Made by a program: the position numbers and the translations under genes. From assembly GCA_965243395.1 (NCBI GenBank), contig CBDEUS010000001.1, positions 224,001-288,000 of the forward strand: a stretch of DNA of 64,000 bases, given 5' to 3'. Positions 3,373 through 61,858 of this stretch are shown piece by piece. The number at the start of each line of letters is the position of its first letter. Position 1 is the first letter of the stretch. This stretch comes from Gammaproteobacteria bacterium (lineage in GTDB: Bacteria; Pseudomonadota; Gammaproteobacteria; UBA4575). Under the pieces are notes generated by a model. It saw only the letters and a list, made by a program, of their open reading frames with translations. It was not told the DNA's origin and did not search any database.

Positions 3373-4206
3373 CTACCAGTTGCGTTCAATTTTCAAATGT
3401 AACGCATGGATAATTTTTGTTGCAATTTCTTCAATTGATATTGATGTAGTATCTATATTAATTATATTTTGTTTTGCAAAGATTTCTTCAGTGTGGCGAA
3501 TTTCAAAAGCACATTGTTTTAACGTTGCGTAGTTACTATTGGGTCTTCTTTTTTCTCGAATGTCAGAAAGTTGTTCTGGTGAAATTGTAAGCCCAATAAG
3601 TTTGTGTTTTACTTTTTTTATTGCTTCCGGTAATTCCAGTGATTCAAAATCTGAATCGGCGATAGGGTAATTAGCCGTTTTTAGTTCATAATGCATTGCT
3701 AGATATAAACAGGTCGGTGTTTTTCCACTTCTTGATACTCCTGTTATTACAACATCAGCGTCTTGCAAGTCATCAGCAAGCAAGCCATCGTCATGGCTTA
3801 AGGCATAATTAAATGCATCCATTCGATGGTTATAGGAATTATGATTACCTAATCCATGCATAATACCTGATGCTGAAGAGGCTTGAGTTGCCAAATCTGA
3901 TTCCATGGAAGGAATGAATGTTGAGAAAATATCATATACAGGTATGTTTTCTTCAGTGAATAACGATTTTATTTCAGTATTGGTCAAGCTTGTGAAAACT
4001 AAAGGCTGTAATCCAGTTTGTTCTTTTTGTAAATGAATTTGTTGAATTACATCTTTTGCAATTTCAGTGTCAGACACAAATGGAAAAACAACTTCATTAA
4101 TTTCGACATCTGGAAACTGAGTAAATAATGATTCAGCCAATGCGGTGATGGTTATTGCGGTACCATCAGAGACAAACACTACGTTTTGTTTGCGTTTCTC
4201 AGTCAT
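3373..4206 (-). CDS. ppsR: PEP synthase regulatory kinase/pyrophosphorylase
   Basis: VSDGTAITI, DDG, GVSRSGKTPTCLYLA, ANYP motifs; adjacent to ppsA; start moved to MTEKRKQ. Confidence 0.93.
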   Translation of the reverse strand: MTEKRKQNVVFVSDGTAITITALAESLFTQFPDVEINEVVFPFVSDTEIAKDVIQQIHLQKEQTGLQPLVFTSLTNTEIKSLFTEENIPVYDIFSTFIPSMESDLATQASSASGIMHGLGNHNSYNHRMDAFNYALSHDDGLLADDLQDADVVITGVSRSGKTPTCLYLAMHYELKTANYPIADSDFESLELPEAIKKVKHKLIGLTISPEQLSDIREKRRPNSNYATLKQCAFEIRHTEEIFAKQNIINIDTTSISIEEIATKIIHALHLKIERNW

Positions 4207-8099: not shown

Positions 8100-8176
8100 G
8101 GCTATGTAGCTCAGTTGGTTAGAGCACAGCATTCATAATGCTGGGGTCATTGGTTCAAGTCCAATCATAGCCACCA
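8100..8176 (+). tRNA. tRNA-Met (CAT), elongator-like
   Basis: GGCTATG acceptor stem pairs with CATAGCC, then ACCA; D arm AGCTCAGTTGGTTAGAGC; anticodon arm CAGCA-TTCATAA-TGCTG; T loop GGTTCAAGTCC. Confidence 0.96.
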
Positions 8177-8294: not shown

Positions 8295-8322
8295 ATGTTT
8301 TCTTTCAGCTAATAGCAATCAT
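8295..8322 (-). repeat. Degenerate 28-bp site (A-like)
   Basis: atgttttcttt-cagcta-atagcaatcat. Confidence 0.55.
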
Positions 8323-8326
8323 TTAG

Positions 8327-8716
8327 TTATTTCTTGGAGACAACTACCATTTCTTTAATTTCAAGTTCTACTTCTGTGCCATATCCTAACTTCCATGTTG
8401 GGAATGGAGCTATTAACAAAGCAATCCAGCCTTGCATCGTTGTTACTTTAACTAATCCGAGATTTTGGTCCTCATCTGAAATCTGGTATGTGTCAATGCA
8501 ATGTGTAGGAATAATGCCGAGTGTTAGTACATAGAACATTGGTTCAAAACAATGAGCACCCTCTGGAAATTCGTTCTCTTTTGTTACTGAAATTTCTTCG
8601 AGACCTTTTTGTGATAATTGTAATTCGCTCTCTGGAACGACCTTATACGTGGCACAAGCAGGCAGAAATAATGCCAAAATAAGTGGAATAAGTACTTTTA
8701 TATTGTATTGCTTCAT
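8327..8716 (-). CDS. Cassette gene: hypothetical lipoprotein
   Basis: Lipobox-like LFLPAC after a hydrophobic leader; fills the interval between two sites. Confidence 0.7.
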   Translation of the reverse strand: MKQYNIKVLIPLILALFLPACATYKVVPESELQLSQKGLEEISVTKENEFPEGAHCFEPMFYVLTLGIIPTHCIDTYQISDEDQNLGLVKVTTMQGWIALLIAPFPTWKLGYGTEVELEIKEMVVVSKK

Positions 8717-8729
8717 ACAGACCTAATAA

Positions 8730-8757
8730 ATTTCCGCTTTCGGCCAATAACGGACAT
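8730..8757 (-). repeat. Solo 28-bp site (A type)
   Basis: atttccgcttt-cggcca-ataacggacat. Confidence 0.85.
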
Positions 8758-8767
8758 TTGTTCAAAA

Positions 8768-9139
8768 TTAATTACGACGTTTTCGTGGTTTAGCAACTAC
8801 TTGCCAACCATCTTCATAAATAATGATTCCTGGATCATCTGTTTTTAATGTATCTATGATAATTCCATGTTCTTCAAGTATAGCTTTTATAGCCCAAATT
8901 CTTTTTAGTGGCTCCTTAGCCTCGGGTTTAAACCAAGAAATTGCTCTAAAATGCTCTTCATCCTTTAATTCTGGAGGACTCTTTAAATGCTCCTTCAACC
9001 ATTCAATATTTTTTAATAATTCATTTTCTAAATACGTTTCTAGCTTTAAGCTATCTCTTAGCTCAAATGCAATTTGGAAAATTCCTAGATAGCTATTACT
9101 GCCTTTATTCTTAATTCGTCCTTGAAATCGGATAAACAT
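8768..9139 (-). CDS. Cassette gene: hypothetical protein
   Basis: 123-aa ORF bounded by sites. Confidence 0.7.
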   Translation of the reverse strand: MFIRFQGRIKNKGSNSYLGIFQIAFELRDSLKLETYLENELLKNIEWLKEHLKSPPELKDEEHFRAISWFKPEAKEPLKRIWAIKAILEEHGIIIDTLKTDDPGIIIYEDGWQVVAKPRKRRN

Positions 9140-9162
9140 TCTTCAAATTATTTTAATTTACA

Positions 9163-9263
9163 ATGTCCGCTTTGGGTCGTTAGGAGACATTTTGCGCTTG
9201 TATGTAATTGATTCCAACCTACCACTTCTCATTTTATGACTGCTTTCGGCCATTAGCGGTCAT
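9163..9263 (-). repeat. Doublet site (45-bp linker)
   Basis: atgtccgcttt-gggtcg-ttaggagacat +45 bp+ atgactgcttt-cggcca-ttagcggtcat; the upstream gene's TGA lies in the arm. Confidence 0.9.
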
Positions 9264-9655
9264 TTGGAGTAATGAAATTGTTTATAAACTATCGTTGCAA
9301 CACTAATATTTATTAAAACAAATATTAACCCTGGGATAAGACTTATAATGCTGTTTTGAAATCCAAAAAACTTCCAGTCTGTATTTATAATTTCATATAT
9401 CCACCATCCAGTATTAAATAACACTATTAAGTAGAAAATATATTGAGACCAGTTTCTATTCGCGAATAAAGCAATACCAGCTACCAAATATGGCATAGCG
9501 TAAAAAACAAACTTCCAATGTTTGTAAACATAAGCACCCCACAGCAGATATACTCCAGCAAGAATAACAGCTAAAATTGCCAACCATTTTCCCAAAGAAC
9601 TTGTCTTGTTATTTTCTCCTAATTCACTATTTGGTGTTGAATACGGATTATCCAT
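9260..9655 (-). CDS. Cassette gene: membrane protein (~4 TM)
   Basis: MDNPYSTP leader and four hydrophobic segments; stop overlaps the site arm. Confidence 0.72.
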   Translation of the reverse strand: MDNPYSTPNSELGENNKTSSLGKWLAILAVILAGVYLLWGAYVYKHWKFVFYAMPYLVAGIALFANRNWSQYIFYLIVLFNTGWWIYEIINTDWKFFGFQNSIISLIPGLIFVLINISVATIVYKQFHYSK

Positions 9656-9674
9656 CTGATTTATTTTATTAATA

Positions 9675-9775
9675 ATGTCTGCTTTGGGTCGTTACCAGAC
9701 ATTTTGCTCTTGTATGCTGTTGAATCCAACCGATTGCGTCCCATTTTTTGTCTCCTTTCGGCCATAAGCGGACAT
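9675..9775 (-). repeat. Doublet site (45-bp linker)
   Basis: atgtctgcttt-gggtcg-ttaccagacat +45 bp+ ttgtctccttt-cggcca-taagcggacat. Confidence 0.9.
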
Positions 9776-10258
9776 TCAATAACCGTAATATTTTGGGTTC
9801 TCTAAAACAGAACGAGCAGTTTCTTTAGCTTGTTCAGAAGTAAACTTTGCGCGAATAAGAACACCAACAGCACAATTTTCGTCTTTTCTTTTTATGCAAT
9901 TTTCAAACTCATCAGATAAGTTGAAAAACCAAAGTCTTTCATTAACTGTCATTCCTTTGTAACTTTCACTAAACCAAATATCCCATTCAAAATCCTTATC
10001 ATCAATTTTATAACTATCCCCACCCATAACTACATCAATTGCTTGCAAGTATTCATTTTGAGTTAATTCGCATGGCTCCCATTTTATATCTGTACCCAAT
10101 TTCCCATCATCAAATCCTCTTTTAAGTAAAAAATTAATTGTCGTTAAAGAGGGCCAATGCGCCATTTTCTTACAGTAAATAAATGATAAACCCAACTCGA
10201 ATAATCTAGCAGTGCTCTGATGTCCAGATTCAATTATTTGCACATTGTGGAGTTTCAT
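9776..10258 (-). CDS. Cassette gene: hypothetical protein
   Basis: 160-aa ORF; stop abuts the site. Confidence 0.7.
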   Translation of the reverse strand: MKLHNVQIIESGHQSTARLFELGLSFIYCKKMAHWPSLTTINFLLKRGFDDGKLGTDIKWEPCELTQNEYLQAIDVVMGGDSYKIDDKDFEWDIWFSESYKGMTVNERLWFFNLSDEFENCIKRKDENCAVGVLIRAKFTSEQAKETARSVLENPKYYGY

Positions 10259-10273
10259 TTTTCTAAATTTAAA

Positions 10274-10374
10274 ATGTCCGCTTTGGGTCGTTACCTGACA
10301 TTTTGAACTGGTATGTCTTTGTTTCCAACCTGTTTCATCCTAAATTATGTCTTCTTTCGGCCAGAAGCGGTCAT
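10274..10374 (-). repeat. Doublet site (45-bp linker)
   Basis: atgtccgcttt-gggtcg-ttacctgacat +45 bp+ atgtcttcttt-cggcca-gaagcggtcat. Confidence 0.9.
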
Positions 10375-10805
10375 TCAATAGTTTTACAGAAAGGCGGATT
10401 GTTGTTTGCGGATTCCAAGCTATTTGGATTTGTAAATGGCCAAATATTTCTATCAAAACCGTTATATTCTTTTGGGAAAAAGCCAAACGTGAATATTCTA
10501 ACTATGCCTCTTACGCAAGCTTTTATTCCTGTTTTTTTAGGCCATAAATATTCATAGTCAGATTTCAAGAATAGAATTACCCTAGCTAATTCTCTTTTAT
10601 GTTCATCTGGTATGCGCCAGTCACCTTTGAGCTTGTGAGTCTTAAAATCATCGTAAAGTGGCCAGCCTGCTTGCCACCATATTTCGTAAATAGCAAGGTC
10701 ATCTGATTCAGGAAGACGGCTTTCAAATTCAAAATTATCTATTTGCCCAGAATAGAAATGTCTTAATAATTCAGCAAATTTGTCTCGTGCTTTTCTATCA
10801 ATCAT
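10371..10805 (-). CDS. Cassette gene: hypothetical protein
   Basis: 144-aa ORF; TGA inside the site arm. Confidence 0.7.
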   Translation of the reverse strand: MIDRKARDKFAELLRHFYSGQIDNFEFESRLPESDDLAIYEIWWQAGWPLYDDFKTHKLKGDWRIPDEHKRELARVILFLKSDYEYLWPKKTGIKACVRGIVRIFTFGFFPKEYNGFDRNIWPFTNPNSLESANNNPPFCKTIE

Positions 10806-10815
10806 TTTTTTGCGA

Positions 10816-10916
10816 ATGTCCGCTTTGGGTCGTTACCGGACATTTTGCTCTTGTATGTAATTGATTCCAATCTACTACTTCTCATTTTTTGACTGCTTTC
10901 GGCCAATAGCGGTCAA
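10816..10916 (-). repeat. Doublet site (45-bp linker)
   Basis: atgtccgcttt-gggtcg-ttaccggacat +45 bp+ ttgactgcttt-cggcca-atagcggtcaa. Confidence 0.9.
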
Positions 10917-11308
10917 AATCTATGTTCATTATCATGATTAATTTTTCCAGTTCCATCATGATATAAATCTAGAACTACTAATCCAGAACCATCGTTACAA
11001 AAGTGTCTTGTTCCATTTTCTAACTCTTCATTTCTGGGGCAAAATATAGCAAGGCTTGTTACTTTATCTGGATCATATTTAAAAGTCGCATACACCAAGT
11101 TCGTATCAATATTATGTTGTTCGTGTATATCAGTAGCGCTTTTCGGCAAGTACTCTGGTAGCCACCCAGCAATCATCATGCCTGCTTCTTTTGCTTCATC
11201 GTAAGTTGAAAAATGAGACTCTGTATTTTCCCAATTTTTGCACCACGAAATTGATAGAAGAATAAGAATTAAGCTACCCGCGATTACTATAATAGATGAC
11301 TTAACCAT
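10913..11308 (-). CDS. Cassette gene: exported hypothetical protein (YbbD-like)
   Basis: N-terminal anchor; GWLPEYLPKSATDIHEQHNIDTN; TGA inside the site arm. Confidence 0.65.
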   Translation of the reverse strand: MVKSSIIVIAGSLILILLSISWCKNWENTESHFSTYDEAKEAGMMIAGWLPEYLPKSATDIHEQHNIDTNLVYATFKYDPDKVTSLAIFCPRNEELENGTRHFCNDGSGLVVLDLYHDGTGKINHDNEHRF

Positions 11309-11329
11309 GATGGATTGCGTATTAAGCTA

Positions 11330-11440
11330 ATGTCCGCTTTGGGTCGTTAGCAGTCATTTTATGTTTGAGTTTTTGTGATTCCAACCTAATTTCCCCCTGA
11401 GTGGTCTAGATCATGTCCGCTTTCGGCCAATAGCAGTCAT
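11330..11440 (-). repeat. Doublet site (55-bp linker)
   Basis: atgtccgcttt-gggtcg-ttagcagtcat +55 bp+ atgtccgcttt-cggcca-atagcagtcat. Confidence 0.9.
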
Positions 11441-11444
11441 TTCT

Positions 11445-11945
11445 TTATTTATTCTCGAGTAATTGTTTTAACTTATCCTCTGCAGCTTGAAGTTCATTTT
11501 CTAAATTTTTAACACGATCATGATATCCTTGAGTAAACCTGGTCGATCCACTTGAAAGTATGCCTGATGTACCTATTCGCTCACCTGGAAGTGGCTCTAT
11601 TCCTTTTTCTAATACCTCTTTTTTATTGGCTATATCTTGCCTCGTTGCTTTTATCTCAGCATCGCGTTTTTTGCGAGCACTAATTCTTTCGTTTATACGC
11701 TGACTTATGTTGTCATGTTGTTTCTTAATCTCTTTCTGTTTTACCTTAGTTTTACTTGCAGGAATAGTATTCGCATCTTGTAAGTCTATCTCTTCAATAT
11801 TGTTTGTATTATTTGGTGGGACAGAGGTATAAACGGTTTTACCATTTTCATCCACATATTTATAAACTTTTGACTGCGAATAAGCAGCAATTGTATACAT
11901 GAGCAAAAAGACAACTATAATTGAATTATTGAATCTATTATTCAC
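11445..11945 (-). CDS. Cassette gene: DUF4124-like exported protein
   Basis: Signal peptide, then VYKYVDENGKTVYTSVPP and a coiled coil. Confidence 0.8.
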   Translation of the reverse strand: MNNRFNNSIIVVFLLMYTIAAYSQSKVYKYVDENGKTVYTSVPPNNTNNIEEIDLQDANTIPASKTKVKQKEIKKQHDNISQRINERISARKKRDAEIKATRQDIANKKEVLEKGIEPLPGERIGTSGILSSGSTRFTQGYHDRVKNLENELQAAEDKLKQLLENK

Positions 11946-12054
11946 TTGATTTCCAAATAAATTATTTAGATTGAAATCATTTTATAGGTCATTATCACTA
12001 CATTTAGATGTCCATTTCACAATAATACGAATGTAATGTATTTTTCTGTTGCAA

Positions 12055-12082
12055 ATATCCGCTTTAGATCGTTAGCAGGCAT
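12055..12082 (-). repeat. Degenerate 28-bp site (B-like) at the array head
   Basis: atatccgcttt-agatcg-ttagcaggcat. Confidence 0.7.
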
Positions 12083-13691: not shown

Positions 13692-16600
13692 TTGTTAGTT
13701 AATAAAAACAACAATTCAGATTTGGGGAGTGTGAGTATGAGGCCGTTCAATCTTGTTCGTTCAGTTTGTAAGAATTTAAAAGCGAGAAATGAGAGTTCAT
13801 TCTCTAATCTTCCAAATGATATTTTAATTCGATTTAAATTTTTAACATTACTTGTAATTCTATATTCATCATTGTTGCAACCATTGCACGCTCTTGAATT
13901 TTGCGGAGGTTCTTATGGTTCATGCAGTGCAGCGCAAGACGCATGTGATACAGTAACCGGTCACAGTAATTGTGACAGCCCGCCAACTAATAGCAGTAAT
14001 AATCATTGTCAGTCTGGAACTCATTATCACTCTGGAAATGTATTCAAAAGTGGCGGTTTTGATAACTATCACTTTACCTGCCTATCCGGCGGAGGTTGTG
14101 GTACGGGTATTACAGAATACACAATCAATAGTTTATGTTTACCAGAAGGGTTTAAAGTTGGAAATACGAAAGGTGCTCCACAAATGTGTGTGGGCAATCC
14201 TCTTAATCCTGCGACTGGAAATAAATTTCAGGCAGAACAAGACATCTCCATCCCGAATAGCGATTTATCCTTTTCGCGTTACTACAATTCAGTAGACGAA
14301 GGGCATGCGGGTGAATTAATCATTAAGGGAAGATGGACTTATGATTATCTTCAAAGACTAGATCCTTCTAATGGATTTGTAACCGTATATCGTCCTGATG
14401 GGAAGGAACTCGTATTCGATTGCCCAGCCACAACTGGGTCTTGTACAGGAGACACCGATCTCAAAATAGAACTTGAGAAAACTTCTACAGGATATTCGCT
14501 ATTAACTTCCAGTAATAACACAGAAGACTATGATACGAATGGAAAACTGCAATCCATTACCTCACTCGCGGGCCAAACACAAACATTATCTTATAACAGC
14601 ACATCTGGATTACTGGAAACCGTTACTGATCATTTTAATCGTACCTTAACGTTTACTTTTGGGACAAGTAGTCGAATAGAAACCATTACCGATCCAAATG
14701 GCGAAGTCTACACATATGATATAGACACGGATAAAAATCTACTATCGGTAACGTATCCCGATGACACACCTGGTACCACAACGGATAATCCAAAACGTGA
14801 GTTTCAATACAACGATACAAATTTTGATTCATTACTCACAGGTATTGTGGATGAGAATGGAAACTTATATGCCGAATTTGATTACGACACCCAAGGACGG
14901 GCGATTCAATCAAAACATGCGGGAGGTGTGGAGCAAGTTGATTTAGTTTATAACGTGGATGGCACTACAACTGTCACGGATTCATTAGGTGCAACGAACA
15001 CCTTCACCTTTGATATCGTGGCATTTGTTCCCAAAACAACGGCTATATCCGGTGGCCAATGTGGCAGCGGTTGTAGTTCACAAGCACAAGCGCAAACTTA
15101 TGACACGAATGGTTATATTGCATCCAGTACCGATTTTGAAGGGAATGTAACTAACTTTGTCAATAACAGTCGGGGACTACAAACTTCAAGAACCGAAGCG
15201 GTGGGAGAATTAGAAGAGCGCACGATAACGACTGACTGGCATTCGACTCTCAGGCTACCTACCAAGATCACAGACAATGGTAAAGAAACTTCCATTACTT
15301 ATAACACTAATGGTCAGGTTCTTACCCGAACTGAAAAAGATTTATCCAATAACAATACGCGCACGACAACGTTTACCTATGATAGTAATGGGAATGTGTT
15401 GACTATCAATGGACCGCGCACTGATATTGATGACATTACCACCTTCACCTATGACACGTCTGGCAATCGTGCCAGCATGAGCGTTGACCCCGATGGCGCA
15501 GGATCTGCACCTGCACAAGTCACTAACTATACTTCTTATGATAATAGCGGGCGTTTGCTCTCCATGACCGATCCTAATGGCGTGGTCACAACGATGGACT
15601 ATGACCCACGTGGGCGCTTAGAGTCGCGTACGGTTGCAAGTGGAACATCCGAAGCTGCAACCACTACTTTTGAATACGATGGCGTGGGGAATGTCACAAA
15701 AATCACATTGCCAAATAATAGTTATCTTTCTTACACGTACGATACTGCACAACGCTTAACGAACATTGAAGACAATCTTGGAAATAAAATTACCTATACC
15801 TTAGATGACTTGGGTAATCGCACCAAAGAAGATGTGTTTGATACCAGCAGCACCTTACGCCGTACACAAAGCCGTGTGTTTGATCAACTCAGTCGAATGA
15901 CCCAGCACACAGGAGGAGCAAGTCAAGTAAGCATTTTTGGTTATGATGGTAATGGTAATCAGGTTTCTGTACTAGACCCTTTAAGCCGAAGCTCTACCTC
16001 TTCCTTTGATGCGTTGAATCGTCTCATTACTTCAACCGATCCGGCATTAAGTGATACAGACTATACGTATGATGATCGCGATAACTTGATCAGTGTATCG
16101 GATGCACGAAGTCTTACTACCACCTACACCTATGATGATTTAGATAACTTAACTCAACTCGTTAGTCCAGACACAGGAACAACTACCTATACGTATGATG
16201 ATGCTGGGAATCGACTTACCCAAACCGATGCCAGAAGTAAAACTACAACCTATACCTATGATGCGTTAAATCGAGTCAGTTCTATAACTTATCCTGATAC
16301 TAGTTTGAATGTCACGTTTACATATGACTCAGGAACGAATGGTAAAGGTCGTTTAACGGGCATGACCGACGCATCAGGTACGACAACATACACCTATGAC
16401 AAGCGTGGAAATCTTGCGAGTGAATCAAAAGTCATCAGCGGTCAAACGTATCTTACGAGTTATGCGTATGATGATGCAGACAATGTCACACAATTAACCT
16501 ATCCAAGTGGGCGCACGGTTGATTACGAATACAATAGCATCGGACAAGTGGTTCAAGTGGAGACTACCTTAGGCAGTAATACCAACATTGTTGCATTTGA

Positions 16601-18815
16601 TATTAACTACCACCCATTTGGACCTATTAAAAGTTTAATCTTTGGTAACGGGTTAAGCACTGCATACACATTTGATCAAGACTATCGACTTACCGATGCG
16701 GTTACAGACAATAATACTCATTCATTGACGTACGCTTATGATCTTGGCGATAACATTTCTACGATCACTGACAATAATGATTCAACGCGTAATCAATCTT
16801 TCACGTATGACAATTTAGATCGCTTATTAAGTGGTAACGGGATTTATGGTTCACTGAGTTACACTTATGATGTAGTCGGTAACCGTCTCACGGAAACAAA
16901 AAATTCAGTAACCGATACTTATAGTTATGCGACTACCAGTAATCAAGTACAAACTATCACTGGTGGTCAAATTAATTCGTTTACTTACGATGCTGCAGGA
17001 AATATCACAGTTGGAAGCGGGGATACCTTCACGGTAAATGATGCCAATCGTATGGCAACCGCAGCAAGTGGTTCGACAACAGCTACGTATACCTATAACG
17101 GCAAAGGCGAACGTACTATAAAAGTAGTGGGTTCTACGACAACGATTTACCACTATGACCAAAATGGACAGCTAATAGCTGAGTCCGATGCACTCGCAAA
17201 TTCACAAGCTGAATATATCTATCTCAATGGGCAACGCCTTGCGTTAATTGATCCTAATGGAACAGGAACGGGCGCATCGGGTATTGTCATCGATAACAGT
17301 GATTCTAGCTCGACTAGTACGATTGGAAATTGGACGACTACCGTAACGGGTACGGGAGATTACGAAGGATCTGATGTTGCGCAGTCAGCATTGAATAGCA
17401 TTGAAATCATTATTGATGATGTTGATTCTTCAACGTCATCTGTAGGTAATTGGTGGCTTAGCACAGCTTCTCATTGGTATGGAGGTACGGCTCAGCATAT
17501 AAGATGGCCAGGCTCAGGTAGTCAAATTTTTACTTGGAATTTTTCTTCTATATCAAGTGGTAATTATGAGGTAGCTGCCCAATGGTGGGCTCACCCGCAA
17601 TATACATCAATTGCACCCTATACTATAAATCACACACAAGGCAGCACGCTTGTATTGGGAGATCAAACCCAAAATCCGGGCTGGAATGTGCTCGGAACAT
17701 TTTCGCTTGATTCCACCAGCAGTATCGAACTAAGCGATGATGCAAATAATAAATATGTCATGGCCGATGCGATACGCTTAATTGATAACACCATACCCAC
17801 ATTCACTTGGGATGCACCGGTGGGCACGTTTGATGTGTATGCAGAATGGACACAAGATTCGAGTCATGCAACGGATTCAACTTATACACTTCATCATTCA
17901 ACAGGACAGACAACTGTAACGGTGAATCAACAAACCAATGGTATAGGTTTGAATTATTTAGGTACAGCAACTTTTGATGCAACAGGAAAAGTTGTTTTGG
18001 CTAGCGGGTCAGATGGAAATGTCATTGCCGATGCAATTCATTTTATAGGGACTTCCACATCCACCACTGCATTGTATTACATTCACAGTAATCACTTAGA
18101 CACCCCTCAAGCCATTACCGACGGAAGTAAAACGGTTGTTTGGAGTGCGGATTATGAACCGTTTGGGGAGACAAATATAACCGTTAATACTTTAACGAAT
18201 AATCTACGATTCCCTGGCCAATATGCTGATAGTGAAAGTGGATTACATTACAACTACTTTAGAGATTACAACCCTAGTATTGGGCGCTATATGCAATCAG
18301 ATCCGATTGGGTTACTTGGCGGATTTAATACCTATGTTTATGTGAAAGCAAATCCACAAAAATTTACCGACAACTTAGGTTTATATGATTCTGATTTTGA
18401 TGCAGCAGAACAAACAATCAATAGATTATTCAAAGGATACAATATTCCTCCTATTTCGACATGTAGCGGTGGTGTAGATTGTACAAGACGCGGATTAGAT
18501 ACATTTGATGAAGGTGGTTATTTACCAGAAACAGATGAAATTATTATAAATGAATTAGATTTTGGTACTGGAGATAATATGAGAGACATAGCTCTCAATG
18601 ATGTACAAGCATATAATCTACTGAACACTTATATCCATGAAATCTTGCATGCAAATCAAAACTTGTTTGGTGATTTCGCAATGAGAAACTTACAAAATGG
18701 ACGAGGTTCTCCGGGAGCATTTTTGCATGACACAATTTATCGATGGGCAGACATTCTAACAAAAAGAAACTTTCAGTCATTCAATGAGTTGAGAGAGCAA
18801 TGCGAAATTAAGTAA
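13692..18815 (+). CDS. RHS/YD-repeat polymorphic toxin with inserted beta-sandwich domains and a C-terminal HExxH domain
   Basis: GNPLNPATGNKF (DUF6531-like), many TYTYD repeats, RHS core LRFPGQY...HYNYFRDY...QSDPIGL, end-of-core DNLGL, then IHEILH; true start may be downstream (e.g. 13737). Confidence 0.9.
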   Translation: MLVNKNNNSDLGSVSMRPFNLVRSVCKNLKARNESSFSNLPNDILIRFKFLTLLVILYSSLLQPLHALEFCGGSYGSCSAAQDACDTVTGHSNCDSPPTNSSNNHCQSGTHYHSGNVFKSGGFDNYHFTCLSGGGCGTGITEYTINSLCLPEGFKVGNTKGAPQMCVGNPLNPATGNKFQAEQDISIPNSDLSFSRYYNSVDEGHAGELIIKGRWTYDYLQRLDPSNGFVTVYRPDGKELVFDCPATTGSCTGDTDLKIELEKTSTGYSLLTSSNNTEDYDTNGKLQSITSLAGQTQTLSYNSTSGLLETVTDHFNRTLTFTFGTSSRIETITDPNGEVYTYDIDTDKNLLSVTYPDDTPGTTTDNPKREFQYNDTNFDSLLTGIVDENGNLYAEFDYDTQGRAIQSKHAGGVEQVDLVYNVDGTTTVTDSLGATNTFTFDIVAFVPKTTAISGGQCGSGCSSQAQAQTYDTNGYIASSTDFEGNVTNFVNNSRGLQTSRTEAVGELEERTITTDWHSTLRLPTKITDNGKETSITYNTNGQVLTRTEKDLSNNNTRTTTFTYDSNGNVLTINGPRTDIDDITTFTYDTSGNRASMSVDPDGAGSAPAQVTNYTSYDNSGRLLSMTDPNGVVTTMDYDPRGRLESRTVASGTSEAATTTFEYDGVGNVTKITLPNNSYLSYTYDTAQRLTNIEDNLGNKITYTLDDLGNRTKEDVFDTSSTLRRTQSRVFDQLSRMTQHTGGASQVSIFGYDGNGNQVSVLDPLSRSSTSSFDALNRLITSTDPALSDTDYTYDDRDNLISVSDARSLTTTYTYDDLDNLTQLVSPDTGTTTYTYDDAGNRLTQTDARSKTTTYTYDALNRVSSITYPDTSLNVTFTYDSGTNGKGRLTGMTDASGTTTYTYDKRGNLASESKVISGQTYLTSYAYDDADNVTQLTYPSGRTVDYEYNSIGQVVQVETTLGSNTNIVAFDINYHPFGPIKSLIFGNGLSTAYTFDQDYRLTDAVTDNNTHSLTYAYDLGDNISTITDNNDSTRNQSFTYDNLDRLLSGNGIYGSLSYTYDVVGNRLTETKNSVTDTYSYATTSNQVQTITGGQINSFTYDAAGNITVGSGDTFTVNDANRMATAASGSTTATYTYNGKGERTIKVVGSTTTIYHYDQNGQLIAESDALANSQAEYIYLNGQRLALIDPNGTGTGASGIVIDNSDSSSTSTIGNWTTTVTGTGDYEGSDVAQSALNSIEIIIDDVDSSTSSVGNWWLSTASHWYGGTAQHIRWPGSGSQIFTWNFSSISSGNYEVAAQWWAHPQYTSIAPYTINHTQGSTLVLGDQTQNPGWNVLGTFSLDSTSSIELSDDANNKYVMADAIRLIDNTIPTFTWDAPVGTFDVYAEWTQDSSHATDSTYTLHHSTGQTTVTVNQQTNGIGLNYLGTATFDATGKVVLASGSDGNVIADAIHFIGTSTSTTALYYIHSNHLDTPQAITDGSKTVVWSADYEPFGETNITVNTLTNNLRFPGQYADSESGLHYNYFRDYNPSIGRYMQSDPIGLLGGFNTYVYVKANPQKFTDNLGLYDSDFDAAEQTINRLFKGYNIPPISTCSGGVDCTRRGLDTFDEGGYLPETDEIIINELDFGTGDNMRDIALNDVQAYNLLNTYIHEILHANQNLFGDFAMRNLQNGRGSPGAFLHDTIYRWADILTKRNFQSFNELREQCEIK

Positions 18816-21332: not shown

Positions 21333-21443
21333 ATGTATGCATTGGATAATAAGCAGACATTTTAAGTTTATAAATTATTGAATCTAACCTGACATTCTCC
21401 TCAATGGTTTAATTTATGACAACTTACGGCCAATAGCAGGCGT
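21333..21443 (-). repeat. Degenerate orphan doublet site (55-bp linker)
   Basis: atgtatgcatt-ggataa-taagcagacat +55 bp (contains ttgaatctaacc)+ atgacaactta-cggcca-atagcaggcgt. Confidence 0.7.
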
Positions 21444-27252: not shown

Positions 27253-28497
27253 TTAAATATCATTTAACAAAGCCACAGCCGCAGCCTTATGCTCAGGCGC
27301 TAAATGTGCATAGCGTAGCGTCATGGATAGCTCTGAATGACCAAGCAATTCACGTACAGTATTTAAATCAACACCTGCCATGACTAACTTGCTCGCAAAG
27401 TGGTGTCGTAAATCATGAAAGCGAAAGTCTTTTATCTGAGAAGTCTTTCGTAGGTTTTCCCAAGCGGTTTGAATGTTATCGAAACGTTTACCTGTATTAG
27501 GATTAGGGAATACAAATCTCTTTGATTCAGTCTGATTTCTCCAAGCGATTAACGTACCCAGTGCTTCATCGTTTAGAGGGATGTGACGTGTTGAACCTGA
27601 TTTAGATGAAACACCTTCAACAGTTATGTTTCTTTTCTTGAGATCGACGTTTTCCCATCGAAGATCAAACAACTCACCTCTGCGCATACCTGTGTTTATG
27701 GCTACTAGAATCATGGGCTTTAAGTAATCAGCAAATGACTTTTTGCTTAAATCTTCTAATAGTTTCTTGCCTCTAGCTGCTCTCCAATCATTTCCAGATT
27801 GTCTATCCTTGATAATACTTTTCTCTCTAGAATCTAATGCTTTTCTGAGTCTCTTTTCTTCATCATCCGTCAAGTAGCGTATCTTTCCTTTACTATCGAC
27901 CTTTAAAGGTTTGACCTTTGTAAGAGGGTGCTTGTTAATAACTCCCCATTCGAGTGCTTTAGATAAGACGGCTTTCAACGCCATCAACTGACGATTAACC
28001 GTTGAGGGTTTGAGACCCTCCTTAATTTCCACAGTCCGCCACTTTTGTATTTCCCATGGAGTGATTTCTTCCATATTGTGTTTCATAAGATGAGGGAAGG
28101 CGAGGTTAAGTTTCTTGAGAGTTTCCTCACCCGATTTACGTTCGACGAGTACCCAAGGTTTATATTTATTCTCGATGAACTTGCCTAGGACTTGATGCTT
28201 TCTGGCTTCACTTCTTTTCTTGGCTGATTTTTTGTTTTCTTGAATGTCCTGGCCTTTGGCTAATTCACCTATTTTGATCTTTGCATGTTCACGAGCTTGA
28301 TCAGCAGTCAGTTTGCCATACTTGCCTAAGGTGTATTCTTTACCTGAACCATTGTGACGATAGTAAATACAAAAGCTTTTCACTCCGCTTGGCATGACGC
28401 GTAAGAAGAATCCAGGCTGTTCGGTATCCCAAACCTTGTAGTACTTAGATCGTGGCTTAAAAGCCTTTACAGTGCGTGTCGTAAGCTTCTCTTTCAC
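27253..28497 (-). CDS. int: Tyrosine integrase with N-terminal arm-binding domain
   Basis: TGMRRGEL (R), SKSG (K), FHDLRH (HxxR), LLGHS, RYAH (Y); N-terminal WD...GFFLRV.PSG.KS...TLGKYG. Confidence 0.96.
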   Translation of the reverse strand: MKEKLTTRTVKAFKPRSKYYKVWDTEQPGFFLRVMPSGVKSFCIYYRHNGSGKEYTLGKYGKLTADQAREHAKIKIGELAKGQDIQENKKSAKKRSEARKHQVLGKFIENKYKPWVLVERKSGEETLKKLNLAFPHLMKHNMEEITPWEIQKWRTVEIKEGLKPSTVNRQLMALKAVLSKALEWGVINKHPLTKVKPLKVDSKGKIRYLTDDEEKRLRKALDSREKSIIKDRQSGNDWRAARGKKLLEDLSKKSFADYLKPMILVAINTGMRRGELFDLRWENVDLKKRNITVEGVSSKSGSTRHIPLNDEALGTLIAWRNQTESKRFVFPNPNTGKRFDNIQTAWENLRKTSQIKDFRFHDLRHHFASKLVMAGVDLNTVRELLGHSELSMTLRYAHLAPEHKAAAVALLNDI

Positions 28498-28518: not shown

Positions 28519-28650
28519 TAATTAAAATACACTCATATACCTTGAGTGACTAAAATAAGGTTAATAAAAGCCTATAAATATAGGGATTATAACGAATATT
28601 AGGTATATAAAGGTATCTTACAGGATAGGGAAGGATAAGGCTATAACGCT

Positions 28651-28695
28651 TTCATAATGCTGGGGTCATTGGTTCAAGTCCAATCATAGCCACCA
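28651..28695 (+). repeat. att site: duplicate of the tRNA-Met 3' 45 bp
   Basis: TTCATAATGCTGGGGTCATTGGTTCAAGTCCAATCATAGCCACCA identical to 8132-8176. Confidence 0.97.
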
Positions 28696-57672: not shown

Positions 57673-57868
57673 GGTTTGATTGACGAGTGATAAATATAAA
57701 TATTTGGATCTCGCAGACATTGATAAGTTAAACTTAAGCTCAGAAGCGGGGATTAGGACTGTAGAAAAATTATAATTTCTTTGAAGTTTGGGAGAAGTGA
57801 TAATGTTTACTTAAGACTCAAAGTAGACATTTTCTGTAAGTGTTATGCCAACATAATATAGGTGCTTT

Positions 57869-58225
57869 ATGCGAAATATAGTAAATATTGTCGTTGTATA
57901 TATTACAGTCACAACTTTGATTATTGGCCAAACTATGCCAGCTTATGCAGGGCTTGTGGGTACAGATCAAATTTTACTAGAGGAAGTGACAAGTCAGGAT
58001 CGAGAAGTTCTGTATGAAATTTTCAATCGTAGCGATGCTCAGAAATTATTAGAAAAGAGTGGTGTTTCTAATAAACAAGCACATGAGCGAATAGCAGCTC
58101 TTACCGATGAGGAAGTAAGGATGTTCGCACAAAATTTTGAAGAACTTCCAGCAGGCGGTGTAGGCAATGCTGCGGCCATACTAATTTTAGTTTTGCTAAT
58201 AATTGTTCTTGCACTTGGAAATTGA
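57869..58225 (+). CDS. PA2779-like exported protein
   Basis: AGLVGT.Q, GVS...A..RIAALTDEE, LPAGG followed by a hydrophobic tail. Confidence 0.75.
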   Translation: MRNIVNIVVVYITVTTLIIGQTMPAYAGLVGTDQILLEEVTSQDREVLYEIFNRSDAQKLLEKSGVSNKQAHERIAALTDEEVRMFAQNFEELPAGGVGNAAAILILVLLIIVLALGN

Positions 58226-58335
58226 GAGCATTAGCGGATTTAGACATGTCCGCTCTCGAGCCAAAGTATGAGCACATAGAAGTGCGAACATGATGTACAT
58301 CGTGGACGATGTCTCTGGTTCTGTTCTTAATTAGA

Positions 58336-58363
58336 ATGTCTGCTTTCGGCCCAAAGCGGACAT
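58336..58363 (+). repeat. Solo 28-bp site (B-like)
   Basis: atgtctgcttt-cggccc-aaagcggacat. Confidence 0.85.
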
Positions 58364-58394
58364 AATTTGGTTTAATAATTCTTGGAATACTCCT

Positions 58395-58967
58395 ATGAAG
58401 CATCATGCCCTTGGTCTAGCGTTAATCTTAATTTTTACGATCCCAAAAATATGTTTAAGTGTAGATCAAGATTTCTATACAAACTTACGGTTAGAATTTT
58501 CTCAACGTGAAAATTATGATGCACTCTGGCATGTATCCTCGGAGCGGAAAGATATTTTTCAAGCTATTAAAGATAAAAACTATGAACTTACGGCAAGCAA
58601 GTCCAAAGTTTGGTTAGATAAATATCCAATCGATGCTGAAATTCATTATATTGCTGCACTTTCCAACGATAATTTAGGTAATCTTCAAGAATCAACTTAC
58701 CATTATTCGAATTTTTATGGTTTATTGAACTCTTTATTGCAATCAGGTGACGGATTATCATCAGAAACAGCGATACAAGTTATTTCAACAGCAGAGGAAT
58801 ATTTAGTAATCCAATTTATTGGTGGAAAATTTATTGAGCAATCTTTGATTCAAGGTAAATGCACTGCATATGATCAAATGGAGATTGAGATTAATGGCGA
58901 AAAGAGAAAAATGTATTTTGATGTAGCAATTCCTCTAACAGGAAAACCCGCCAAGCTTGATTGCTAA
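58395..58967 (+). CDS. Cassette gene: DUF4919-like exported protein
   Basis: Signal peptide; LL.S.L.SGDG.S.ETA..VI...EEY, YD, YFDV. Confidence 0.7.
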   Translation: MKHHALGLALILIFTIPKICLSVDQDFYTNLRLEFSQRENYDALWHVSSERKDIFQAIKDKNYELTASKSKVWLDKYPIDAEIHYIAALSNDNLGNLQESTYHYSNFYGLLNSLLQSGDGLSSETAIQVISTAEEYLVIQFIGGKFIEQSLIQGKCTAYDQMEIEINGEKRKMYFDVAIPLTGKPAKLDC

Positions 58968-58981
58968 TTCAATTTTAATAA

Positions 58982-59082
58982 TTGACCGCTTTTGGCCGAA
59001 AGGAGACATAAAATGGTATGCAGTTGGTTGGTATCAACAAATTACAAACTTAAAATGTCCGGTATCGACCCGAAGCGGACAT
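58982..59082 (+). repeat. Doublet site (45-bp linker)
   Basis: ttgaccgcttt-tggccg-aaaggagacat +45 bp+ atgtccggtat-cgaccc-gaagcggacat. Confidence 0.9.
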
Positions 59083-59130
59083 AAACTTGAATCATAATTA
59101 ATCTCTGTAAAGAAATCTGGAAGTTTTAAA

Positions 59131-59514
59131 TTGGCACATAATCTTGAAATAAATAAGCAGAATGCCATTGCATTTTATAAGACTGCCTATAACGGTGAAC
59201 CACGAAAAGCAGTTGAGCAATATGTCGGTGATGAATACATACAACACAATCCTGATGTAAAAGATGGTAAAGAGGGATTTATTGAATACTTTGAAGCAAT
59301 GGCAAGAGAGTATCCAAACAAAAGCATTGAATTTGTTCGCTCAATTGCAGAAGGCAACTTGGTGTCATTACACACTTACCAAACTTGGCCAGGAAATGAT
59401 GAATATGTAACGATGGATTTTTTCAGGTTTGATGATAATGGAAAAATTGTGGAGCATTGGGATTCAGTGCAACAGATACCAAACGAATCAGCGAATGATA
59501 ATAATATGTACTGA
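59131..59514 (+). CDS. Cassette gene: SnoaL/NTF2-like protein
   Basis: YIQHNP.V.DG..GF, IAEGNLV..H, DFFRFD..GKIVEHWD. Confidence 0.88.
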   Translation: MAHNLEINKQNAIAFYKTAYNGEPRKAVEQYVGDEYIQHNPDVKDGKEGFIEYFEAMAREYPNKSIEFVRSIAEGNLVSLHTYQTWPGNDEYVTMDFFRFDDNGKIVEHWDSVQQIPNESANDNNMY

Positions 59515-59530
59515 TAGTTGTTCTTTTTAC

Positions 59531-59558
59531 ATGTCCGTTATCGACCCAAAGCGGACAT
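59531..59558 (+). repeat. Solo 28-bp site (B type)
   Basis: atgtccgttat-cgaccc-aaagcggacat. Confidence 0.88.
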
Positions 59559-59575
59559 TTTTACGAAGTATAAAG

Positions 59576-60268
59576 ATGAAAAGTATAAGGAATATTTTAT
59601 ACAGTTTATCAATGGCTTTTGTTGTAAGTTGCGGTACTCCTGGTGTTGTTAATGAAATTAAAGTTGAACCTGTTAAAGAATCTAAGTGGGAGAATACTAG
59701 TTGGTCGCTAAATTTTATGTTTATTTGGCCAGTATATGAGAAAAAAGAACAAACTAATAAGGATTTGAGTGTTAGCGAAACAAATGAAAAAGAATTAGTG
59801 ATACACGGCCCGAAGCCAGCAAGTGAATTTGACCTAAGCGAAAATTTAAAAGCTGGCTTATCACGTTTTAGAGAAGATTTTTTCAATCAGCTGCCAATGA
59901 GTGCATCACTTAAAAAATCAGATGCTGATTACGATGTTGTTATAACTTTTACAATCAAAGACACACGTGGTCCTATTTATGTTGATGAAAAGGATTTAGA
60001 AATTGCAAAAAGAGCAGTAGATATAGATTTACTTACACCTATTGATCTTTTAGTAAAAGCTGACTTTGATGTGCTATATGATTTAACTACAAGCACAGGT
60101 GATGTGTTTCAAAAAAGCTACACTGTAATTGATTCAGTTGATCATCAGGAAAGTAGGTATGGAAGAAAATCAAATAGCCATATAGAACTATTGTCTAAGA
60201 AGATTTTTCGCAATCAAACTTTGAAAACTTCTAATAAATTTCTTGAAGAAGCTGCTAAAAAATTATAA
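59576..60268 (+). CDS. Cassette gene: hypothetical lipoprotein
   Basis: Start moved to MKSIRN (17 bp after the site); VVSC lipobox. Confidence 0.7.
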   Translation: MKSIRNILYSLSMAFVVSCGTPGVVNEIKVEPVKESKWENTSWSLNFMFIWPVYEKKEQTNKDLSVSETNEKELVIHGPKPASEFDLSENLKAGLSRFREDFFNQLPMSASLKKSDADYDVVITFTIKDTRGPIYVDEKDLEIAKRAVDIDLLTPIDLLVKADFDVLYDLTTSTGDVFQKSYTVIDSVDHQESRYGRKSNSHIELLSKKIFRNQTLKTSNKFLEEAAKKL

Positions 60269-60272
60269 ATAA

Positions 60273-60373
60273 ATGTCCGCTATTGGCCGAAAGTAGTCAT
60301 AAAACAGGATGAACTAGGTTGGAATCAATAAGATGCAATCTTAAAATGTCCGGTAACAAACCATAGCAGACAT
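60273..60373 (+). repeat. Doublet site (45-bp linker)
   Basis: atgtccgctat-tggccg-aaagtagtcat +45 bp+ atgtccggtaa-caaacc-atagcagacat. Confidence 0.88.
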
Positions 60374-60407
60374 TGCTTGTTTGCATCTTGTATGAGGTAT
60401 ATTCCAA

Positions 60408-60905
60408 ATGAATAAAGTAATAATACTTACGTTAATTATTTCAATATCGACTCTTTGTTTTGCAGACGAACTTACTCAGGAGAAGAGAGAAGATATTTTG
60501 TATTTATTAGAAAGATCAGGAAGTTTAGATGTTGGGTTAGAACTAGCTACAAATATTACCCAACAATTTAATCAAGTTTTAAGTCAAACAAATAAAGATA
60601 TTCCTAAGAATGTGTTCGTAGTTTTGCAAGAAGAATTAGAAATACTTTTGAAAGAAGAAACAGGCAAAAATGGGGGGCTTACTGATATTTCAATTAATGT
60701 GTATCACGATCACTTTACTCACGATGAAATAAAGCAACTCAATAAGTTCTATGATTCACCTATTGGTCAAAAACTGGCAGCTCGCACGCCCACGATAGCG
60801 AGAGAATCAATGATCGCAAGTCAGAAATGGGCTGAGAACATGCAGCCTTTGCTAGTAGATCGTGCGTTAACTGTTTTACGTTCTCAAGGCTATAATTTTG
60901 AATGA
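60408..60905 (+). CDS. Cassette gene: DUF2059-like exported protein
   Basis: Signal peptide; VY..HFT..EI..L..FY.SP.GQK; TGA in the site arm. Confidence 0.85.
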   Translation: MNKVIILTLIISISTLCFADELTQEKREDILYLLERSGSLDVGLELATNITQQFNQVLSQTNKDIPKNVFVVLQEELEILLKEETGKNGGLTDISINVYHDHFTHDEIKQLNKFYDSPIGQKLAARTPTIARESMIASQKWAENMQPLLVDRALTVLRSQGYNFE

Positions 60906-60929
60906 CCGCTAACGATCCAAAGCGGACAC
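60902..60929 (+). repeat. Solo 28-bp site (B-like)
   Basis: atgaccgctaa-cgatcc-aaagcggacac. Confidence 0.88.
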
Positions 60930-60935
60930 TATTTA

Positions 60936-61247
60936 GTGAAATATCAACTTGTTATTCAATTTCCAGCTGAGTCTCAAAATGACTTCGACAATCTTATCGA
61001 AATTGAGAATGAATTAATAAAAAAGTTAACTGGTGACTCAGAAGTTGATGGGCATGATTTCGGAAGTGGAGAAATGAATATATTCATCTTCACGAATGAG
61101 CCTAATAAAACATTTAGTCATGTCATTACTATGTTAACAAGTAGAGATGAAAATATTTCGAATATGAAAGCTGGCTATAGAGTCATTGAAGATGAGGATT
61201 TCACTGTACTGTGGCCTAATGATCTAACAGAATTTGTAGTACGATGA
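60936..61247 (+). CDS. Cassette gene: hypothetical protein
   Basis: 103 aa, VDGHDFGSGEMNIFI; TGA in the site arm. Confidence 0.75.
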   Translation: MKYQLVIQFPAESQNDFDNLIEIENELIKKLTGDSEVDGHDFGSGEMNIFIFTNEPNKTFSHVITMLTSRDENISNMKAGYRVIEDEDFTVLWPNDLTEFVVR

Positions 61248-61271
61248 CCGCTAACGACCCAAAGCGGATAT
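61244..61271 (+). repeat. Solo 28-bp site (B type)
   Basis: atgaccgctaa-cgaccc-aaagcggatat. Confidence 0.88.
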
Positions 61272-61303
61272 TAGTTAATATTAATATCTAACAAAATACT
61301 ACT

Positions 61304-61645
61304 GTGTCTATTAAATTTCACTTCATGCTTGGATTGATATTATTGGCATTGTATGGATTATTTTTATTTAAAATTGAATCTATTCTTCCGTATTTTTATG
61401 ATGTATTAAGTGGAGATGTGCGCTCCAGTGGCCCTAGATACACCTATTGGGCCATTTGTATAGTTCTTGTTTTACCTTCAGTTTCAGTGTTCTTCTTTCT
61501 TTTTGGAAATAAAGTCAGTGATTGGTTATCTATGTACGTAAGACATGGTGATTTTTATACTAAAGGAGTGATTTATTTATTTGGATACATCAGTCTAATG
61601 TTTTCAGTAATAGTTATATTCTTATTTAAGTTAATAGAATATTAA
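61304..61645 (+). CDS. Cassette gene: 3-TM membrane protein
   Basis: Three hydrophobic segments; TAA overlaps the first base of the next site. Confidence 0.65.
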   Translation: MSIKFHFMLGLILLALYGLFLFKIESILPYFYDVLSGDVRSSGPRYTYWAICIVLVLPSVSVFFFLFGNKVSDWLSMYVRHGDFYTKGVIYLFGYISLMFSVIVIFLFKLIEY

Positions 61646-61672
61646 TATCTGCTATTGGTCGAAAGGAGACAA
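61645..61672 (+). repeat. Solo 28-bp site (A-like)
   Basis: atatctgctat-tggtcg-aaaggagacaa. Confidence 0.78.
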
Positions 61673-61678
61673 ATTTAA

Positions 61679-61834: not shown

Positions 61835-61858
61835 CCGCTAATGGCCGAAAGCAGAAAT
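61831..61858 (+). repeat. Solo 28-bp site (A type)
   Basis: atgaccgctaa-tggccg-aaagcagaaat. Confidence 0.85.

Follow-up and report, generated by a model that had tools for sequence, protein, structure and literature searches.

The 64,000-nt stretch of DNA analysed here (the window, to which all unprefixed positions refer) is part of a gammaproteobacterial genome of 2.58 Mb in two contigs, with a guanine plus cytosine (GC) content of 38–39%, referred to as G000 (contigs C1 and C2). At positions 8295–12082 the window holds an array of short genes separated by 28-bp imperfect palindromes (array 1), which is apparently part of a real, sharply defined and so far undescribed gene cassette system. 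Thirteen sites, the first starting at 8295 and the last ending at 12082, bound seven co-oriented open reading frames (ORFs) of 123–166 amino acids (aa), which fill the interval on the minus strand and show no mutual resemblance, in agreement with a preliminary description of this DNA. A search of the whole window with the 28-mer pattern put forward in that description returned 24 distinct positions (40 strand matches) at up to 3 mismatches, with none found in 100 dinucleotide-preserving shuffles. At up to 4 mismatches there were 27 sites, with 13 of these lying within 8295–12082 and none in block shuffles, and at up to 5 mismatches there were 30 sites compared with 0.9 expected. The 13 copies originally counted in array 1 were recovered with identical end coordinates, and the 29 copies counted across the window, degenerate ones included, are consistent with the 27 to 30 found here.

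The placement of the genes relative to the sites is equally regular, with start codons lying 13, 23, 19, 15, 10, 21, and 109 bp past a site, so that all but the last fall within the 10–23 bp previously noted. Three stop codons lie inside the following site, formed by the TGA of ATGAC or TTGAC at 9260, 10371, and 10913, and the remaining stops lie 0–10 bp ahead of it, which again bears out the earlier account. Only one of the seven ORFs belongs to a Pfam family. Coordinates of these and related features are collected in Table 1.

Table 1. Coordinates of array 1, of the genomic island that carries it, and of related features mentioned in the text
Feature	Position	Strand	Remarks
tRNA-Met, island attachment site	8100–8176	+	
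Degenerate a-type site, closing end of array 1	8295–8322	-	4 mismatches; 4 bp past ORF 1 stop
Cassette ORF 1, 129 aa	8327–8716	-	lipoprotein-like signal (LPAC); no Pfam family
Single a-type site common to ORF 2 and ORF 1	8730–8757	-	ORF 2 stop 10 bp before; ORF 1 start 13 bp after
Cassette ORF 2, 123 aa	8768–9139	-	no Pfam family
Composite junction	9163–9263	-	a-site 9236–9263 (0 mismatches); 45-bp linker; b-site 9163–9190
Cassette ORF 3, 131 aa	9260–9655	-	predicted membrane protein
Composite junction	9675–9775	-	a-site 9748–9775; 45-bp linker; b-site 9675–9702
Cassette ORF 4, 160 aa	9776–10258	-	no Pfam family
Composite junction	10274–10374	-	a-site 10347–10374; 45-bp linker; b-site 10274–10301
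Cassette ORF 5, 144 aa	10371–10805	-	no Pfam family; partial DNA homologue at G003 contig end
Composite junction	10816–10916	-	a-site 10889–10916; 45-bp linker; b-site 10816–10843; 94 bits
Cassette ORF 6, 131 aa	10913–11308	-	no Pfam family; N-terminal hydrophobic segment; stop TGA inside next a-site
Composite junction	11330–11440	-	a-site 11413–11440; 55-bp linker; b-site 11330–11357
Cassette ORF 7, 166 aa	11445–11945	-	DUF4124; predicted secreted
Degenerate b-type site, upstream end of array 1	12055–12082	-	ATGCCTGCTAA CGATCT AAAGCGGATAT; 3 mismatches; 109 bp before first ORF
Conserved linkers of array 1	9191–9235, 9703–9747, 10302–10346, 10844–10888, 11358–11412		
Solitary degenerate a-linker-b composite inside island	21333–21443	-	58 bits
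P4-type island integrase (Arm-DNA-bind_3, Int_N, Phage_integrase)	27253–28497	-	serves island; absent from other site-rich genomes
Direct repeat of tRNA-Met 3' end, far island boundary	28648–28695	+	98% over 48 bp
Array 2, same grammar as array 1	57803–63888	+	extends past the window to G000:C1:292675
Small tyrosine recombinase gene copies	L175:2199–2855 (G041), L180:2318–2953 (G042)		

The sites fall into two types, with type a carrying the spacer TGGCCG and following a stop codon, and type b carrying the spacer CGACCC and preceding a start codon. Both types have the common inverted arms ATGWCCGCT and AGCGGWCAT around a 6-bp centre, with the two innermost arm bases being asymmetric in the same sense in a and b. 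The orientation of a site can be read only from its centre and these two bases, the centre of a being nearly symmetric. The 28 bp fit the 11-6-11 geometry originally assigned to them, with a 12-4-12 reading equally possible. Five junctions of array 1 are composites of 101–111 bp in which an a-site, a conserved linker (45 bp in four junctions and 55 bp in one), and a b-site follow one another, the composite copies being 75–90% alike; outside the composites of array 1, a single a-site or a single b-site also acts as a junction. The basic element may be taken as b-site, ORF, and a-site, since solitary units show exactly that arrangement, and a cassette is one ORF, rarely two or three, that starts shortly past a b-site and stops at an a-site. 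The alternation of a and b in array 1 yields ORF modules and linker modules in turn.

The preliminary description held that the sites leave no room for a promoter, which stands for the gap between b-site and start codon but not for the linker, which contains a weak -35/-10-like pair; the array genes can therefore not be called promoterless. The linker motif (TTGGAA-17 nt-CAAAAT/TAAAAT in gene orientation, accompanied by a small TTGGA...TCAA hairpin) may be a weak promoter or a protein site, with only one of the five linkers passing a promoter scan and with promoter-like sites across the whole array region being fewer than in shuffles (8 compared with 17.6). Folding of three composites as single strands, in both orientations, shows long a:b hairpins competing with twin hairpins (z from -0.9 to -4.0), and Watson-Crick covariation was seen neither inside single sites nor from a to b. 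Given this ambiguous folding and the lack of covariation, we read the sites as duplex protein sites and not as hairpins.

Array 1 is one of about ten arrays in G000, which are accompanied by solitary units. In total the genome holds 85 sites at up to 3 mismatches, gathered in 23 loci, several of which are arrays of 5–12 sites, and the a-linker-b and cassette grammar of array 1 holds in four further arrays. A stop codon lies at the site on the same strand for 28 of 39 a-sites and on the opposite strand for 2, and 33 of 46 b-sites are followed within 130 bp by a start codon on the same strand, the gap being 2–56 bp in 31 of these 33. The cassette logic first proposed, one short co-oriented ORF per site, is thereby upheld, with the polarity of the sites tied to the gene (28 vs 2). 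Genome-wide scatter of the sites between housekeeping genes, which the preliminary description had set against its own reading, is not seen, the sites being clustered in accessory arrays. Site orientation relative to the replication strand is mixed, as judged by eye against GC skew. Among 47 cassette ORFs of G000 no Pfam family was found twice, with the families represented including a GNAT acetyltransferase, OsmC, SnoaL, a nuclease, a methyltransferase, and several DUFs. Runs of one site type (b-ORF-b and a-ORF-a) occur in the arrays of this genome; array 2, at the far end of the window, has composite, single-a, and single-b junctions, with some of its ORFs lying between directly repeated b-sites, and includes a two-gene cassette at 62483–63828. 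A third spacer type (CAGTCA or CAGTCG) is carried by solitary sites outside the window at G000:C1:88216, C1:220902, and C1:1080625. G000 appears to be free of insertion sequences (IS), having no gene with at least 3 copies at 80% identity or more and no rve, DDE_Tnp_1, DDE_3, Y1, or resolvase genes.

Comparison between relatives shows that cassette content differs at conserved loci, with the changes bounded by sites; gene order is not identical across the genus, an outcome the preliminary description had likewise named as contrary to its view. The flank of array 1 is kept in 15 of 15 genomes of the genus, while the array itself is not. No DNA homologue of array 2 was found in any of 5 relatives, and in the closest relative (91% identity) synteny stops about 600 bp before array 2, where a b-like site with different content comes next. 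At a conserved locus near xerC, G000 carries one cassette, the relative G011 a different one, and the relative G001 two others, all mutually unrelated by blastp, and three other relatives have no sites there. Cassette ORF 3 has a homologue in G011 (48% aa identity, dN/dS 0.34) that lies in an array of at least 12 cassettes of the same grammar, the neighbours of which differ from those in array 1, and the block of homology stops at the outer edges of the flanking sites. The G011 homologue of cassette ORF 7 (57% aa identity, dN 0.29, dS 3.1) forms a solitary b-ORF-a unit at an unrelated place. Both cassettes tested, ORF 3 and ORF 7, are under purifying selection.

The sites extend well beyond the genus. 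Among the other genomes of the genus, 13 of 14 contain the a-site, with 9–89 strand matches apiece; outside the genus it is found in 5 of 10 genera from the same family and in 1 of 16 further families sampled. An exact 20-mer of the b-site was located at no fewer than 117 loci, which belong to Gammaproteobacteria, Alphaproteobacteria, Nitrospinota, Nitrospirota, and additional bacteria, of any host GC content. Units of the form b-ORF(s)-a are present in a metagenome-assembled genome (MAG) of Nitrospirota, where three genes are enclosed, and in a Nitrospina MAG, with 27 strand matches in a Lysobacter genome and 28 in a Nitrospinaceae MAG. In an alphaproteobacterial MAG (G042), a 29-bp variant that keeps the arms but has one more base in the middle gives 234 strand matches, and it comes in two types whose 7-nt spacers (ACCCCC-type and TGGGGG-type) are near-inverse. 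These variants are often paired, 16–17 bp apart, with a 28-bp site of another spacer (TGGCAC or TGACCC; loci L034 and L177–L183). Since Lysobacter, Nitrospinaceae, Nitrospirota, and Alphaproteobacteria carry the same arms, arm conservation spans phyla, in contrast to the lineage-specific spacers. The composite had no match in plasmid and phage collections, and the b-site 20-mer had 0 matches in IMG/VR.

On these grounds we consider it somewhat probable that the arrays form a modular exchange system bounded by sites. The best explanation of the data as a whole, which in our estimate is evenly poised between right and wrong, is that site-delimited gene cassettes are reshuffled by recombination at the sites with an enzyme supplied in trans. 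Cassettes would be acquired, lost, and rearranged through conservative exchange between duplex sites of like type, the crossover falling in the site centre. If flanked by two like sites in direct repeat, an ORF and the linker next to it could leave as a circle with one site, and this circle could enter at any like site. Neighbouring cassettes are joined by a small conserved ORF-less linker module or by one common site. The enzyme would be neither IntI, nor RAYT, nor a serine recombinase, nor a DDE transposase of the rve, DDE_Tnp_1, or DDE_3 families. That a dedicated or housekeeping site-specific recombinase drives the system falls, in our judgement, a little short of an even proposition.

The position of the presumed crossover is suggested by the pattern of linkage within the composites. 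Variable positions were tested for association (Fisher) in 90 distinct a-linker-b composites from G000 and other loci, with the right arm of a, the linker, and the left arm of b forming a single linkage block (p from 1e-3 to 1e-9). Positions in the left arm of a (a4, a10, and a11) and in the right arm of b (b23) are unlinked to this block, despite lying only 6–15 bp away within the same 28-bp site. A break of linkage inside the sites is what a crossover in the site centre predicts, and is not what exchange anywhere in the 101-bp repeat would give.

Several points nevertheless weigh against recombination at the sites by a specific enzyme. Within the linkage test, stop-codon use also acts on positions a4, a10, and a11, the minor alleles of b23 number only 13, and the 90 composite copies are related and so not phylogenetically independent. 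The centres of a and b differ, and exchange of a with b is consequently not expected of a tyrosine recombinase. Exchange between the repeats mediated by RecA could also shuffle cassettes, and the 101-bp composites resemble the mosaics of bacterial interspersed mosaic elements (BIMEs), which are repeats of ~100 bp with a linker. Neither an excision product nor a rearrangement was seen. The four sequencing runs that contain array 1, none of them RNA, are all contigs of one metagenome sample from one study, and apparent joints in them are cross-mapping between repeat copies, with sides of 20–31 nt lying on the repeats themselves. Genes beside the sites provide no recurrent partner, with neighbours recurring in at most 5 of the 117 cross-phylum loci (GGDEF proteins), P4-type integrases in 4 of 117, and no gene family found at three or more distinct loci along the borders of the 23 loci in G000. 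Furthermore, a role for XerC/XerD would be unorthodox, because the arms are unlike the genome's own dif site.

The preliminary description also supposed that the system has its own recombinase, and for this part no support was found. No recombinase is encoded in cis beside the arrays, and no dedicated tyrosine recombinase is common to site-rich genomes. G000 has five tyrosine recombinases, comprising canonical XerD, canonical XerC, and three island-type integrases, and the complete, site-rich genome of G011 adds to XerD and XerC a single integrase, which has no kinship with those of G000 or G001, leaving XerC and XerD as the only tyrosine recombinases, and the only recognisable recombinases at all, common to these three site-rich genomes. 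Their presence is permissive and is not evidence for a Xer role, and as G011's sole integrase other than Xer is unrelated to those of the other two genomes, the island integrases were rejected as a shared enzyme. Two solitary cassettes of G000 lie near xer genes, one at G000:C1:422917–423419 (L126), 3.0 kb from xerD, and the other at G000:C2:247855–248502 (L127), 2.5 kb from xerC, in what is a variable hotspot across the genus. The chance that both xer genes lie this near to sites by accident is about 0.6% by a rough, unadjusted estimate, and we treat the proximity as no more than a lead. Hotspot cassettes are flanked by a second inverted-repeat element of an unrelated kind (L151 in G001 at 1055–1114 and 1756–1815; L150 in G011 at about 1560; L126 at about 3450–3500). 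In G001 an identical 60 bp of it stands ahead of both b-sites, with an inverted copy past the last a-site, and a 50-bp piece of the related L126 stretch also matches the congener G014.

A small tyrosine recombinase of 211–218 aa, consisting of the catalytic domain only, adjoins sites in two distant genomes. Its copies in the Lysobacter genome (G041) and in G042 are 55% identical, and in both the gene starts 20–65 bp past a site. In G041 it is flanked by two sites in the manner of a cassette, and it has at least 586 relatives in metagenome contigs. As a general partner it was rejected, since it was not found in the genus of G000 with this query and adjoins a site at just 1 of 71 metagenome loci. 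A serine resolvase, an idea prompted by the resolvase half-site consensus, was likewise rejected, with PF00239 having 0 matches in G000 and not tracking the sites in relatives (4 of 14 congeners have it, while G001, G003, and G005 do not). Along the array borders of G000 only one paralogous gene pair recurs, at two distinct loci, and from its C-terminal motif it is tentatively taken for a two-component regulator.

The foremost alternative, which we regard as unlikely yet deserving of serious attention, is that the sites are selfish or structural palindromes between accessory genes, akin to repetitive extragenic palindromes (REPs) and BIMEs, with the shuffling a by-product of RecA recombination or transformation that uses the repeats as homology. 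In common with REPs and BIMEs mobilised with RAYT, the sites are short extragenic palindromes of two subtypes at gene ends, and the 28-bp palindromes with their conserved linker build up mosaics of about the length seen in BIMEs. Copies as similar as those of the composites could support homologous exchange, and no dedicated enzyme has been found. The lack of an enzyme is not itself foreign to REPs, as PMC3733652 reports CGTC-type REPs without a dedicated transposase. The same source defines REPs by a GTAG or CGTC tetranucleotide at one palindrome end (PMC3733652), whereas GTAG/CTAC occurs near the end of only 3 of the 85 sites of G000 and CGTC/GACG in none. The RAYT transposase (PF01797, Y1 transposase) is not found in G000 and occurs in 1 of 13 site-positive congeners; G005, G003, G019, and G002, the four genomes richest in a-site matches, lack it. 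Unlike REPs, moreover, the sites are clustered in their 23 loci in place of being dispersed, have a polarity tied to the gene, and bound variable genes. Homologous exchange does not predict that linkage is lost within 6–15 bp at the site centre but kept across a linker of 45–55 bp, and the cross-phylum conservation of the arms with lineage-specific spacers further disfavours this alternative.

Less probable again is that the sites are protein operators or transcript elements (for silencing, insulation, processing, or stabilisation) which travel with cassettes that themselves arrive through islands or transformation. The fixed position of the sites relative to the gene, with b 2–56 bp before the start and a at the stop, suits such a role, as do arms that look to be read by a protein and show no covariation. 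With 0 terminator-like sites found in array 1, the array may be one transcript in need of internal signals, and its location on a tRNA island with its own integrase provides a route of arrival. Against this, folding is weak and ambiguous, an Rfam scan at E ≤ 5 gave no match at the sites, and neither the site-bounded changes in content at conserved loci nor the break of linkage inside the sites is explained by operators or transcript elements.

The possibility that the sites are atypical attC sites, the arrays then being clusters of attC sites lacking an integron integrase (CALINs) and serviced by a lost IntI or one acting in trans, is largely refuted and very improbable. The resemblance is one of logic and content: integron cassettes and CALINs likewise have one short ORF per site, mostly no obvious promoter, co-oriented arrays, site repeats typical of a lineage, and a diverse pool of cassettes mostly without known function (GNAT, OsmC, SnoaL, and others). 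Additionally, the inner left arm of the b-site (GCTAAC with a 5-nt gap) resembles the 5' end of a genuine attC of G014, and IntI is present in the family (in G014 and in G015). However, the best IntI (TIGR02249) match in G000 reaches 83 bits compared with a cutoff of 265. Matches above this cutoff exist in 6 of 41 relatives and in 1 of 5 distant carriers, but in none of the 13 site-positive congeners. Within the genus IntI is confined to G014, a genome with 0 a-site matches, the integron arrays of which use classical attC sites with TAAC...GTTA ends. The IntI-adjacent arrays of G014 and G015 contain 0 a- or b-sites at up to 5 mismatches, with the 33 a-site matches of G015 lying elsewhere. In the a-linker-b unit AAC is missing from the 5' end and GTT from the 3' end, the sole AAC lying on the 3' side, in the b-site, which is the wrong end for the gene orientation. 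These complementary ends being absent, covariation between a and b being nil, and the arrays with IntI using other sites, the earlier remark that the sites lack the RYYYAAC/GTTRRRY boxes of attC is sustained. Unlike integrons, the arrays have a site on both sides of each cassette, consist of 28-bp duplex-type palindromes in place of a variable hairpin, and use single 28-bp sites as junctions too. Classical integrons were located at G014:C20 (locus L159 11572–18006) and G015:C29 (locus L158); within the genus, integrons and a/b arrays are complementary (1 genome compared with 13), and G015, which belongs to another genus, has both, apart from each other.

Equally improbable is a reading of the arms as terminal inverted repeats of 11 bp, after the manner of miniature inverted-repeat transposable elements, by which a DDE or other transposase acting in trans would mobilise the DNA between two sites: the arms do begin with TG and end with CA, and any two sites form inverted ends around an ORF or linker, but G000 lacks rve, DDE_Tnp_1, and DDE_3 genes (of 14 congeners, 3, 2, and 0 have them, respectively) as well as multi-copy genes (none of the three duplicate pairs scanned being a transposase), no target duplications were seen by eye at solitary cassettes, and the polarity is tied to the gene.

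When set beside known systems, the logic of the arrays appears closest to that of the dif modules of Acinetobacter, and also close to that of integron cassette arrays. According to PMC13141974, 28-bp sites bound the Acinetobacter modules, some of which are ORF-less, two site configurations must alternate, and excision is possible for two adjacent modules if the sites around the pair have the same orientation and like spacers. Shared with those plasmid modules are 28-bp 11-6-11 sites (pdif, the substrate of XerC/XerD), modules that are often single genes or ORF-less and are bounded by sites, a tendency for two site configurations to alternate, and shuffling of content, which in Acinetobacter takes place between replicons. 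In contrast, the arrays described here are chromosomal, the same arms recur across phyla and are near-identical inverted copies of each other, and runs of a single type (b-ORF-b) occur. The host dif site at G000:C1:959290 (ACTTCGCATAA TATATA TTATGTTAAAT) is canonical and lies about 39 kb from the cumulative GC-skew maximum of its contig, and by eye the arms of a and b share 6 of 11 and 4 of 11 positions with its arms, so that the lack of a match to XerC/XerD arms pointed out earlier holds against the host's own dif. The minimal mobile elements of Neisseria also place different gene cassettes at one position between conserved flanking genes, and are thought to be exchanged by homologous recombination in those genes. 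Here, in contrast, every cassette brings conserved sites of its own, and many cassettes may be lined up in one array. In the literature searched, supplementary material aside, we found no description of these sites or of a comparable chromosomal cassette system that is neither integron nor dif.

Array 1 stands at the tRNA-proximal end of an island of ~20.5 kb (8177–28695) inserted at a tRNA-Met gene. Other genes of the island encode an AAA_25 protein, an HNH protein, and a 1707-aa RHS-repeat protein (13692–18815) followed by a small ORF. In the closest relative homology ends at the tRNA end, and in the metagenome the island and its flank are on separate contigs, with depths of 7.5 and 4.2, 2.7 and 4.9, and 16.7 and 14.1, respectively.

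The textbook means of stockpiling and reshuffling single genes in bacteria is the integron, and to our knowledge the dif modules of Acinetobacter, plasmid-borne and clinically framed, are the only other well-known system of site-bounded modules. The arrays described here follow the same economy, with one small gene per site, arrays, and content that varies at fixed loci, but with different sites, no IntI, and no enzyme in cis, and they recur across phyla in environmental bacteria. We put forward tentatively, and with more doubt than conviction, that they represent a third kind of bacterial gene cassette, independent of integrons and of dif-like sites. Such a system would be built on duplex core sites of 28 or 29 bp, with arms conserved from Gammaproteobacteria to Alphaproteobacteria, Nitrospinota, and Nitrospirota and with lineage-specific spacers, would be driven either by XerC/XerD acting on non-dif sites or by recombinases of a family that escapes current domain models, and would replace the integron within this genus, in genomes that are virtually IS-free. 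If the exchange is catalysed, then either a housekeeping recombinase has a second, unrecognised class of substrate or a new family of recombinases exists, and surveys centred on integrons would overlook a pool of mobile cassettes, the sites of which are short, sharply defined, and easy to scan for.

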